Shown in pieces: positions 24,770 through 40,791 of a stretch of 64,000 nt of DNA. This DNA is from an uncultured delta proteobacterium (GTDB taxonomy: Bacteria; Myxococcota_A; Polyangia; Palsa-1104): NCBI GenBank assembly GCA_963785725.1, contig CAWAWS010000014.1, positions 224,001 to 288,000 on the forward strand. Direction: 5' to 3'. The notes beneath the pieces were generated by a model. The model ran no database searches. It was not told the DNA's origin and saw only the letters and a program-made list of their open reading frames with translations. A program made the translations under genes and the position numbers. The stretch's first letter is position 1. Each line of letters begins with the position of its first letter.

Positions 24770-24842
24770 GCGGGCGTAACTCAGTTGGTAGAGTACCTGC
24801 TTCCCAAGCAGGTTGTCGCCGGTTCGAGCCCGGTCGCCCGCT
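24770..24842 (+). tRNA. tRNA-Gly (anticodon CCC), CCA not encoded
   Basis: Acceptor GCGGGCG/CGCCCGC, D-arm CTCAGTTGGTAGAG, anticodon arm CCTGC-TTCCCAA-GCAGG, T-loop GGTTCGAGCC. Confidence 0.97.
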
Positions 24843-25183
24843 CTCCCTATCGCGCTTGTCCGTCCGACCGCGCCGCTCCTCGGCCAGCCGTTCGCTGGCG
24901 TCGCGCGCTTCTCGCTGCGCCCTCCTTCGCTAATCGTGTCGAATAGCGCCCGCAATCTGGTCGCGAACGGAAACGATCAACTCCTAGCGCGACCCATGAT
25001 TCATGGACGAGTCCAGTGCGGATCTTAGTGATCGTGAATATTGAGGATTCGCATTCGATTTACGTCCGTTGGTAATTGGTTTTCGCATTCTCGCCGCGTA
25101 CGAATCGGGCGCGGTCGGAGCCGCCGCGGAAGGTGAGCGCGAGCACGCGTTGGGGCCGCCGCCGATCGCTTGCGTCGGCTTCC

Positions 25184-25259
25184 GCGATCGAAAAACGATC
25201 GCCGAGCGATCGAAAACGATCGCCGAGCGATCGAAAAACGATCGCCGAGCGATCGCGGA
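25184..25259. repeat. Tandem array of 3 x 21-22-bp palindromic units GCGATCG-A4/5-CGATCGC-CGA plus a partial unit
   Basis: Units at 25184, 25206 and 25227; CGATCG every 10-11 bp. Confidence 0.9.
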
Positions 25260-25775
25260 CGGCGGTTCGTCACCCGCGGAGCGCATTTTGTGATCGCGTT
25301 GTGCACCGGCCGCTCCAGCGATCGAAAATGGCGTTTCTCGACGGTAAATCGGGCTACGAAGCGTGCACGGCCGGCGGCGAGACGGTAAATCTCGGGCAAA
25401 AATCGATCACGTCGCGCGAAAAGTGCGTTTTCTAGGCTTTTCGCGCCGATCTCGAGGTGCTAGGCTGACTGCGTCGGGTTGGTCGAGCGGAGGGGACATG
25501 TCGGATCGGATCGTGTTCCAGTCTTCGGCGCTCGGGCTTTCGCTCTGTGGAAAACCAAATCAGTCCTTAATGAGAACCGGGTACGGGAATGGATTTTCCC
25601 GCCGGTGAATGATCCGCGAACGGATCTGTTTTGCAGCTCGTACGCGTCCCGAGCAGTTGTCGGATGTTGGCGATCGGACGCATTGAATGATGGGTTTTTT
25701 GCTCACTCGGCGGCGCTTTTGGCGCAATCAGTGAAGCTTCGTAAGCCAACAACAACAGACAAGAGAGAACATCAA

Positions 25776-26117
25776 ATGGCGAAGGCAGGCAAAGCAGCAG
25801 CGGCTTCGGGCAAGGCGCCCACCAAGACGGAGATCTTCACGGCGATCGCGGAGCAGACCGAGCTCTCGCGCAAGCAGGTCGGCCTGGTTTTCGAGGCCCT
25901 CGGCGCGCAGATCGGCAAGAGCCTCGGCAACCGCGGCCCCGGCGTCATCGCGATCCCGGGCCTGGTGAAGATCGAGAAGAAGAGCGTCCCGGCCAAGCCG
26001 GCGCGCAAGAACGTTCCGAACCCGTTCAAGCCGGGCGAGTTCATGAACGTCGCCGCCAAGAAGGCGAGCACGAAGATCAAGGTCCGCGCGCTCAAGGGTC
26101 TCAAGGACCTCATCTGA
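25776..26117 (+). CDS. HU family DNA-binding protein
   Basis: TKTEIFTAIAEQTELSRKQV...IPGLVKI...PARKNVPNPF..GE...AKKAS.KIKVRALK.LKD. Confidence 0.92.
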   Translation: MAKAGKAAAASGKAPTKTEIFTAIAEQTELSRKQVGLVFEALGAQIGKSLGNRGPGVIAIPGLVKIEKKSVPAKPARKNVPNPFKPGEFMNVAAKKASTKIKVRALKGLKDLI

Positions 26118-26137
26118 TCTAGCAGTCGCTGTACAAG

Positions 26138-26183
26138 ATCGCCGCGCAGTCAGCCGTCCAGCGCTGACTGCGCGGCGATTTTT
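26138..26183 (+). terminator. Intrinsic terminator after HU
   Basis: ATCGCCGCGCAGTCAGC-loop-GCTGACTGCGCGGCGAT followed by a T run. Confidence 0.85.
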
Positions 26184-26266
26184 TATTTCGTAATCACTTT
26201 AGTTTTTCGCGCTTCGATATCGTAAGCAATCGCGACAATTCCAACGCCGATGATAGATTCACGCCC

Positions 26267-27064
26267 ATGAAACGCGCGTGGCTCTTGGCGTTGGCGCTGC
26301 TCGGCGGCTGCGCGTCGGCGCGGGCGACACCCTCGCGACTGACGCTGACGTATCTCGGCGTCGCCGGCTGGTCCATCTCCGACGGTCGCCACACCGTCCT
26401 CGTCGATCCCTATTTTTCGCGGCCGGCCGACCTCGAGCACGCCGTCCCCGACGAAGCCGCCATCGCCGCGCATTCGCCGGCGCGCGCCGACGTCATCCTC
26501 GTCGGCCACGGCCACGTCGATCACGCGCTCGATGCGCCGGCGGTCGCGCTGCGCACCGGCGCCACCCTCATCGCGGGCGCCGCCGTCGCCGCCAAAGCCC
26601 ACGCCGCCGGCCTCGCCAATTCCCGTATCCGCACCGCCAAAGCCGGCGACACCCACACCTTCGACGGGCTCTCCATCCGCGTCATCGCCAGCCTGCATTC
26701 CCTCATCGGCGCCGGCCAAGACGTCGAGACGTTCGCCTACCTCCTGCGCATCGCCGACCGCCAAATCCTCATCTTCGACACCGCCAACTTCGTCGAGACC
26801 GCGCTCACCAACGTCCACCCCGACATCGCCATCCTCGCCACCGGCCTGCGCGAGCAGATCCCCGACTACGCCTGCCGCCTGATGCGCATCCTCCACCGCC
26901 CACCGCGCGTATTCCCCACCCACTTCGACGCCTGGCGCCAACCACCCGAAACGCCGCTCACCCCCGCCGACCGCGCCGACCTCGCCACTTTCACCGCCGA
27001 AATCCACCACTGCGCGCCCAACACCACCGTCACGATCCCCATCCCTTTCACGCCGATTCCCTAA
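26267..27064 (+). CDS. Metallo-beta-lactamase fold hydrolase lipoprotein
   Basis: Lipobox LGGC; YLGVAGW, LVDPYFSR, GHGHVDHALD, PTHFD. Confidence 0.9.
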   Translation: MKRAWLLALALLGGCASARATPSRLTLTYLGVAGWSISDGRHTVLVDPYFSRPADLEHAVPDEAAIAAHSPARADVILVGHGHVDHALDAPAVALRTGATLIAGAAVAAKAHAAGLANSRIRTAKAGDTHTFDGLSIRVIASLHSLIGAGQDVETFAYLLRIADRQILIFDTANFVETALTNVHPDIAILATGLREQIPDYACRLMRILHRPPRVFPTHFDAWRQPPETPLTPADRADLATFTAEIHHCAPNTTVTIPIPFTPIP

Positions 27065-27067
27065 AAT

Positions 27068-27347
27068 CCAGGGGCGTGCCGCCCGCTCGCCGTCTGCCAC
27101 CCAAGACCCCCGCCAAGCCACGAGGGAATCGGACCCACCGCCGGGGTGGCGTCGCGACCTTCTTGTCCGCGCGCAGGCGGAGCGCGGCCCGCCTCAGCAT
27201 TCACCTACTCAATCCAATACCTTAGAAGCGACAGCGCCGACGTTCGCGCACTGGGCGCGCAGACGAGCACGGACAAGAAGGTCGCGATGACAGGACCCCG
27301 ACGCCGCGCCAGGGCCCCACGTGACTTGGCCTCCCAGCGAGCAGCGC
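27068..27347. repeat. ~280-bp palindromic dispersed repeat, copy 1
   Basis: Closely similar to 40512-40791; internal inverted repeat 27152-27169/27270-27287. Confidence 0.9.
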
Positions 27348-27425
27348 CCTCGCGAAGCGCCCACCATGCGGTAACCTGAATGCGTGCCCTCGGGAACTTC
27401 CGGCGCGCGCGTCCGTTTACCGATC

Positions 27426-28028
27426 GTGTCTCGAGCCTCGTCAACCGCGCGCACCCCCGACGCGTCCAGCGATCTCGACGAAGTCACGCTCGCCCGCGCC
27501 AAAACCGGCGATCGCCGAGCGTTCCGCGCCCTCGTCGAGCGTTATCAGCGCCCGGTGTTCTCGCTCTTGAGCCGCATGTTGCTCCCCGCCGGCCGTGAAT
27601 CCCTGGTCGAAGATTTGGCCCAAGAGGCCTTCGTGCGCGTCTTTCGCGGGCTGCCAACCTTCGGCAGCGACGGGCGCACCAACCTGGCGGCGTGGATCCT
27701 GACGATCGCGGCGCGCCTCGCCATCGACGAGCTGCGCCGGCAACCGCAGCGTCACGAGTCGCTCGATCGGCAGGCGCTCGGCGTCGCCGGCGGCGCGTCG
27801 GCCGATCACGAGAGCGAGCGGCGCGGCGTCGCCAGCGCCATCGAGCGCGCCGTCGCCGAGTTGACGCCGGAGCAGCGCGCGGCGTTCCTGCTGCGCGAGG
27901 TGCACGAGATGGATTACGAGTCGATCGCCGACGCGCTGGCCGTCGACGTGGGCACGGTGAAATCGCGGCTTTCGCGCGCCCGAGCGGCGCTGCGACGGGC
28001 GCTGCAAGGAACCTACGATGAGCGATGA
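27426..28028 (+). CDS. ECF RNA polymerase sigma-70 factor (start uncertain)
   Basis: GDRRAFRALVERYQ, EDLAQEAFVRVF, WILTIAAR, YESIADAL...GTVKSRLSRAR. Confidence 0.92.
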   Translation: MSRASSTARTPDASSDLDEVTLARAKTGDRRAFRALVERYQRPVFSLLSRMLLPAGRESLVEDLAQEAFVRVFRGLPTFGSDGRTNLAAWILTIAARLAIDELRRQPQRHESLDRQALGVAGGASADHESERRGVASAIERAVAELTPEQRAAFLLREVHEMDYESIADALAVDVGTVKSRLSRARAALRRALQGTYDER

Positions 28029-40511: not shown

Positions 40512-40791
40512 CCAGGGGCGTGCGACCCGCTTGACGTCTGCCACCCAAGACCTCCGCCAAGCCACGAGGGAATCGGCACCATCGCTGGGGTGGCGTCGCG
40601 ACCTTCTTGTCCGCGCGCAGGCGGAGCGCGGCCCGAAAAAGCACCCACTTCGTCGTTGCATATCTTCGAAGCGAAGCGCCGAACGCCTAGAACCGCGCGC
40701 GCAGACGAGCACGGACAAGAAGGTCGCGACGACAGGACCCCAGACTTCCGCGCCAGGGCCCCACGTGACTTGGCCTCCGCGCGAGCAGCGC
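40512..40791. repeat. ~280-bp palindromic dispersed repeat, copy 2
   Basis: Same orientation as copy 1; perfect 20-bp inverted repeat 40594-40613/40712-40731. Confidence 0.9.

Follow-up and report, generated by a model that had tools for sequence, protein, structure and literature searches.

In the genome of an uncultured delta proteobacterium the genes flanking most copies of a mobile hairpin, element A, have lost G from one strand. The loss is real and derived, and it is locked to the orientation of the element: at silent sites it reaches about 1 kb on the 5' side and about 0.5 kb, more weakly, on the 3' side. The cause is probably local strand-specific mutagenesis, in which the host processes the hairpin and translesion synthesis fills in the exposed DNA, the differences being known as fixed ones. 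The genome under study (G000) is 8.9 Mb and 88% complete. The window, by which we mean the whole 64,000-nucleotide stretch of DNA analyzed, has the following relevant features:

26121..27445, no strand assigned: segment with the hydrolase gene and the element; in contigs from related soil organisms 226 other bases stand in its place (joint 26120>27446)
26267..27064, + strand: metallo-beta-lactamase-fold (UlaG-like) hydrolase gene that bears the 5' halo (Pfam Lactamase_B_2/B_3, homologues, composition)
26350..27067, + strand: 5' G-depletion halo of copy 1, with silent G>C and G>A and some amino-acid shifts (composition, four-fold sites)
27068..27347, + strand: element A copy 1, a nested hairpin of about 280 nt (folding z=-3.4, genome copies)
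27144..27298, + strand: core found across phyla, composed of a GGGTGGC motif, an 18-bp stem (27152-27169 / 27270-27287), a G-poor loop and the GACAGGACCC motif
27384..27620, + strand: short 3' halo in the first part of the gene for an ECF sigma factor (27384-28028) (third-position comparison, Pfam)
40512..40791, + strand: element A copy 2, with a weaker two-sided halo (four-fold -0.10 and -0.17)

Loss of G around element A

The hand counts of the sequence-only reading, 30 G versus 93 C at 26881-27060 and 24 G versus 22 C at 26281-26340, were exact (Fisher p=0.0008), and in absolute G/C skew (-0.48) the 300-bp stretch at copy 1 ranked 1 of 177,636 genome windows (sd 0.078). The skew deepens without a break from about 26350 up to 27060 and is already -0.24 by 26350, which places the start of the halo upstream of the previously assigned position 26560. 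The hydrolase gene is intact, and its G loss grows toward the element (Pfam, homologues, composition). Judged by the names of homologues, the host is probably a Myxococcota-like soil organism. By thirds of the gene, third-position G runs 28, 11 and 15 and third-position C runs 49, 69 and 65. The encoded tail had been described as rich in T, H, I and P and is indeed so, these residues making up 45% of the last 85, whereas the 39 best homologues average 26% and reach 40% at most. A homologue 77% identical to the hydrolase (P0002) has a comparable tail shift. Searches of 400 genomes of the phylum gave no DNA of a close hydrolase orthologue at E<=1e-45, the genus matches being ~40% paralogues.

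We scored halos as G minus C at four-fold sites relative to an amino-acid-matched expectation, on the element strand and within 700 bp, in genes called with a purpose-built codon model. The 5' side of copy 1 gave -0.61 over 148 four-fold sites and the right flank +0.07 over 700 bp. At that scale the statement that the DNA to the right of the element looks normal holds. It fails in the first ~180 nt of rpoE, to the right of copy 1, where 6 of 11 consensus-G third positions are altered (4 to C, 2 to A) and none of 13 consensus-C third positions has become G. As the right-hand halo of copy 1 is only a short one, a normal right side is nearly true locally and false for the family. No sigma-70 promoter-like site was found in 26100-27500. 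A sequencing artefact is unlikely because, in orthologue-anchored genes, the changes are synonymous and the amino acid is retained. Elsewhere in the window there is a tRNA-like gene (24773-24845), and an HU-like gene is preceded by three ~20-nt direct repeats (25180-25260).

Across the eight copies of element A, and by permutation against 2,104 intergenic anchors, the average skew depends on orientation. The 5' side scored -0.33 (p<=0.0002), with 7 of 8 copies negative, and the 3' side -0.18 (p<=0.0064), with 6 of 8 negative. The halo is therefore not one-sided as first described, G being depleted from the same strand on the 3' side too. The single 5' exception lies at a gene common to that copy and an opposite-facing one. 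Loss of G is set by the orientation of the element rather than by gene direction, and genes of both orientations show it (5' same-strand G, 68 observed versus 167 expected; 3' opposite-strand G, 148 versus 236). Genes that end at the 3' side of the element show an increase in coding-strand G. At G000:C7:252357-253667 two opposite copies stand 735 bp apart with a peroxiredoxin gene between them. Each copy has a halo on its own strand, so the effect is not set by replication direction, and each end of the peroxiredoxin gene follows the nearer copy. Four MITE families used for comparison (23, 25, 17 and 21 copies; 86 in total) had no halo (p=0.15-0.95). Genes neighboring one of them, family M2, showed a mild gene-3'-end effect of ~10%, much below the halo of element A, and an effect of that kind is opposite in sign to the 3' side of A.

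Element A, its insertion sites and its relatives

Element A is a non-coding mobile hairpin. Its eight genome copies, two of which fall in the window, are 74-90% identical to copy 1. Compensatory change was seen at 13 of 66 predicted pairs and the G residues of the element's own stem are conserved. Several positions retain G-T wobble pairs on the + strand, which suggests that this is the strand that folds. At copy 2, orthologue-polarised sites showed ancestral G changed at 7/18 and 7/19 on the two sides. All four aligned relatives lack the element at the C5 site, and the family C element at C16 is likewise missing from the relatives aligned there. Hence, with such sites empty in relatives, element A is an insertion, and comparison of filled and empty sites of G000 gave no clear target duplication. 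The joint 26120>27446 was seen in one contig each of two runs of the same study (X1 and X4). Given that the hydrolase gene and the element are jointly absent there, the gene may have entered alongside the element or into a hot spot shared with it. Rfam gave no match to copy 1 at E<=5 and none to eight other loci at the gathering threshold. BLAST searches of 40 relatives for a near-identical element A gave only two marginal matches of 25-42 nt, and an exact 25-mer of the element had no match in metagenome contigs.

Three other families of G000, B (22 copies), C (2 copies) and D, also have oriented halos, those of family B in a subset only (5' side negative in only 12 of 20 copies). Exact family B patterns were absent from the 14 and 60 relatives searched, and a diverged B-like copy is visible in genome G002. 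Among the B copies (e.g., C14:356828) the three strongest differ in their 5' flank, one of them bearing the 5' end of element A, and several copies show short tandem duplications of one end of the stem. The two family C copies (C16:490483 and C15:225062) are hairpins with the same oriented G loss. Family D is a structured repeat of ~180 nt having two reverse-complement sub-motifs in common with element A. It gave 71 matches (e.g., C39:299032-299212, C7:419315-419496 and C14:46113-46250), and its halo is mirror-like, about +0.1 on one side and -0.40 to -0.09 on the other (64 copies scoring >40). Family D was seeded from skewed windows and adjoins 15 of the 60 most skewed coding windows of G000. 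Together the four families adjoin 23 of those 60 windows versus 2.7% expected, a comparison in which family D had been found from the same windows.

The core motif of element A occurs in other phyla. A relaxed pattern gave 106 stretches in GTDB genomes, several of which lack the left motif and are chance matches; the stretches include Actinomycetota, Nitrospirae, Rokubacteria and Gammaproteobacteria. With a looser pattern, 19 of the 20 genomes chosen gave matches, and the controls gave 0-1 each. Genome G072 duplicates G002 and was counted once, and the genomes compared are kin within groups rather than independent. Sampled copies from six Thermoleophilia genomes had a mirror-shaped halo (5' negative 24/32, 3' positive 42/50), and ordinary gene ends, in the five of those genomes that offered sufficient data, showed almost no shift. 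Genus relatives of G000 were weakly negative (7/9 and 9/13), as were Rokubacteria (10/12 and 11/13), and the Nitrospirae copies sampled had no halo (6/13 and 6/12 negative). NucS was present in 6/6 of the mirror-halo Thermoleophilia and MutL in G000. The type of mismatch repair thus fits element A and Thermoleophilia as a cause of halo geometry, and it is insufficient overall because family D is mirror-like within G000 itself.

Some core copies have unusual surroundings. Short copies lie within coding sequences, apparently in frame, at L161, L174, L180, L222, L224 (pdhC-like), L170 (ychF-like) and L254, and these resemble Rickettsia palindromic elements. At L233:3460-4650, and also at L210, L214 and L230, inverted back-to-back copies ~1 kb apart surround a decayed reading frame, which we take to resemble an ISAs1 transposase.

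No recurrent mobile-element or nuclease gene was found beside core copies by inspection of ORF lists and N-terminal sequences by eye, the exception being IS1182 in G002. There three near-identical, CTAG-flanked IS1182 copies (L306, L307 and L308, of which L307 is frameshifted) have the core hairpin downstream of the stop codon of the transposase gene and ahead of the right end. The G002 transposase gene shows only a slight drift, G:C being 53:21, 35:25 and 39:38 by thirds. The core was found inside the right end of none of 59 other related IS1182 elements, and the distant IS1182 of G000 itself, missed by tblastn of the G002 transposase and found by a family search, lacks the core. IS1182 was hence rejected as the general parent, and the core hairpin looks like a passenger. 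Many Thermoleophilia copies are followed on the right by CTAG or a close variant.

The substitution spectrum and its cause

To polarise the changes, codons were aligned to those of G001-G004 and G010, and only sites with the same base in three or more relatives were counted. The A-only set comprises the 6 of 8 copies with orthologue data, 4 of these on the 5' side, and far reference sites are those beyond 1.2 kb. Within 500 bp on the 5' side ancestral four-fold G had become C at 36/71 sites versus 81/589 far sites (p=1e-11). Changes of four-fold G to A (4/71) and to T (3/71) compare with 15/589 and 7/589 far. The reverse change, ancestral C to G, was found at 0/26 sites versus 65/550 far. At two-fold sites G>A was raised (13/39 versus 45/351 far, p=0.003) and C>T showed no rise (3/24 versus 60/383 far), which points to minus-strand C as the likelier target. 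The 3' side gave G>C at 25/90 (p=0.0015) and two-fold G>A at 15/66 (p=0.054). A larger set of 13 elements consisted of the A copies, the two copies of family C and three of family B chosen for strong halos; within 250 bp on its 5' side 23 of 24 ancestral G had changed, and the four-fold G fraction was 0.53 in relatives and 0.09 with the element. Element-free orthologues thus do not share the bias, and as G is normal in them and lost here, the change is derived and does not reflect choice of insertion site.

Amino-acid-changing loss of G near A copies (3/174) was no higher than far away (31/1,392), with loss-to-gain ratios of 11:11 and 13:14. Adding the three hand-picked B copies and family C gave 27:13 and 41:21 (about 1.5-2-fold). 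Amino-acid changes are therefore raised less than expected of a plain mutator. Near the elements T was also scarce (10 observed versus 25 expected), T>C being up as well. A context table gave no dependence of the G changes on the next base, the effect predicted by template-slippage bypass, which was rejected.

We fitted a mutation-selection model calibrated on far sites, a crude model in that sites are treated as independent. For the A-only 5' set the AIC values were 310 with no effect, 294 with G>A only, 295 with G>A plus T>C, 237 with a fixation bias for C and against G, 234 with G>N raised 4.7-fold and 233 with G>A raised 3.2-fold plus G>C raised 6.2-fold. Across the fits G>C and G>A were each up about 3-8-fold. 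Transition-only cytosine deamination (G>A) was rejected, being ~60 AIC units behind models with direct G>C on this unbiased 5' set. The sequence-only reading had invoked cytosine damage on an exposed minus strand; loss of minus-strand C suits the spectrum, and plain deamination fits badly.

The mutagenesis that we favor could proceed as follows. The + strand of element A would fold, and host enzymes processing the hairpin would leave the minus strand exposed as single-stranded DNA within the element and beside it. Exposed minus-strand cytosines would be damaged to uracil and then to abasic sites, opposite which a translesion polymerase, most likely ImuA-ImuB-DnaE2, would insert C or A. Over evolutionary time G>C would be fixed wherever silent, and G>A at two-fold sites. 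In Caulobacter, section 7.3 of a review (PMC3901139) describes ImuBC-dependent G:C>C:G transversions. G000 has a dnaE2 above the profile cut-off, preceded by RecA/ImuA-like and Y-family/ImuB-like genes that both score below theirs. Of the six Thermoleophilia with a mirror halo, four also have a dnaE2 above cut-off; the Nitrospirae genome, which has no halo, does not. Both dnaE2 and core-motif copies are present in G001, G003, G004 and G010, but the halo of the genus sample is weak at most, and hence dnaE2 plus the motif is not sufficient. Geometries also differ, element A acting on the same strand on both sides and family D and Thermoleophilia being mirror-like with opposite signs, so that one simple model does not account for all.

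It is possible, if somewhat unlikely, that mutation proceeds at a normal rate and that fixation favors C and disfavors G on the element strand, whether through C-over-G Rho-loading tracts that stop transcripts, avoidance of mispairing with the hairpin or strand-biased gene conversion. Such a bias would suit the mostly silent changes, with amino-acid change barely up at A copies, the concurrent rise in T>C, the compensatory changes within the element and the C-over-G bias of Rut sites (PMC13650167). On the A-only data it is only 4.5 AIC units worse than mutation; in the larger 5' set, some of whose copies were hand-picked, it is 10-19 units worse. The same effect in sense and antisense genes and on both sides of the element also argues against it, as does a hydrolase tail that is the most T/H/I/P-shifted of 40 homologues. 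Moreover, Rho selection does not predict a gain of A over T in non-coding flanks of the G-poor side, which was seen for family D (p=6e-9) and family B (p=2e-4), was not significant for A and appears to some extent beside two MITE controls. The earlier proposal of element-triggered, strand-specific mutagenesis named two outcomes that would refute it, and neither was obtained, as the multi-copy average depends on orientation and orthologues free of the element do not share the bias; the proposal has to allow for a halo that is two-sided in the family and for a fixation bias only ~5 AIC units worse.

A dedicated trans-acting enzyme (a deaminase, a nickase or a DGR-like reverse transcriptase that copies RNA of the element with C-specific errors) that recognizes the core and mutates one strand in its vicinity seems to us quite improbable. 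Conservation in several phyla of a core with asymmetric internal loops, a base-specific spectrum that a one-factor G>N model fits about as well as the best model and the lineage dependence of the halo would all accord with it. Against this, G000 (88% complete) gave no match to the Y1/RAYT transposase (PF01797) and had no intact reverse transcriptase, only a single RVT_1 fragment below cut-off; core copies lack a recurrent partner gene, IS1182 in G002 excepted; and four different families have halos in one genome, which points to a general host response. The last reading, that the elements prefer to insert in strands already poor in G, or that the halo stems from ordinary codon usage at gene ends or from a sequencing artefact beside palindromes, is already largely refuted and has very little probability left. 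The mild effect beside family M2 speaks for it; against it are the normal G content of empty-site orthologues, the gain of coding-strand G in genes ending at the 3' side of the element, contrary to a gene-end effect, and the preservation of the amino acid.

Relation to known systems and significance

Kataegis-like clusters of C>T and C>G arise on exposed single strands, and in the mitochondrial strand-displacement gradient one strand loses C. The halo resembles both in the loss of C from one strand with a distance gradient, and it differs in that pure deamination is rejected by the model fit. The MITEs of G000 (M1, M2, M4 and M5) have terminal inverted repeats, with CTAG-type ends in M1 and M4, and are presumably ERIC-like. 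Element A is akin to the IS1182/MITE group in that the G002 core lies within an IS1182 right end and Thermoleophilia copies have CTAG-like ends; it differs in that the MITEs show no halo.

A close parallel is palindrome-induced mutagenesis at a distance, known from yeast (Saini et al. 2013), which likewise consists of hairpin-linked changes in flanking DNA that decay with distance. The flanks of element A carry an excess of substitutions that depends on the repeat and decays with distance, and by analogy the halo may work in the same way. In the yeast study (PMC3681665), a hairpin-forming repeat raises mutation in both flanks via resection, single-stranded DNA and a translesion polymerase, the system being one of engineered repeats and double-strand breaks with a reach of up to 8 kb. 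The footprint of element A, in contrast, is natural, fixed, bacterial, ~1 kb, orientation-locked and G-specific, and in family A it lies on the same strand on both sides, which two-ended resection as described there does not predict.

REP/REPIN sequences (GTAG and CGTC superfamilies; PMC3733652) are multi-copy extragenic palindromes found mostly downstream of genes and sometimes as dimers or in frame within genes, CGTC types lacking a dedicated transposase; the word "skew" is absent from that paper. Core copies too occur in frame in genes. The elements described here are far longer (70-280 nt), with a different conserved core and no RAYT in G000, and membership was rejected given a 280-nt nested hairpin with other conserved ends, rather than a 20-40 bp GTAG/CGTC-tagged palindrome, and the lack of Y1. 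A diversity-generating retroelement or retron was rejected as well, there being no intact reverse transcriptase and the changes falling at G across unrelated single-copy genes rather than as A>N in a repeat pair. For human inverted repeats, PMC7897504 reports no effect on flanks. A literature search with thin coverage of subscription journals gave no account of bacterial strand skew anchored on such elements. The present work adds the orthologue-polarised spectrum, empty insertion sites, a core that spans phyla and the occurrence of two halo geometries within a single genome.

Bacterial strand asymmetry is usually attributed to replication and transcription. The present findings indicate that small mobile elements also imprint a kilobase-scale, strand-specific loss of G on host genes, conserved housekeeping operons included. 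If the cause is selective, the halos reveal an unrecognized function of these hairpins. A bolder proposal, which we hold to be unlikely, is that cross-phylum structured DNA elements are programmable local mutators whose conserved core recruits a specific enzyme, from the host or associated with the element, that mutates the cytosines of one strand over ~1 kb; if so, insertion would diversify whichever gene the element lands beside. If the cause is mutational, codon-usage and dN/dS estimates would be biased near such elements, in vivo hairpin processing and DnaE2 activity would become directly testable, and element A would amount to a naturally occurring targeted mutator, whose cis element is defined and could be cloned beside a reporter.
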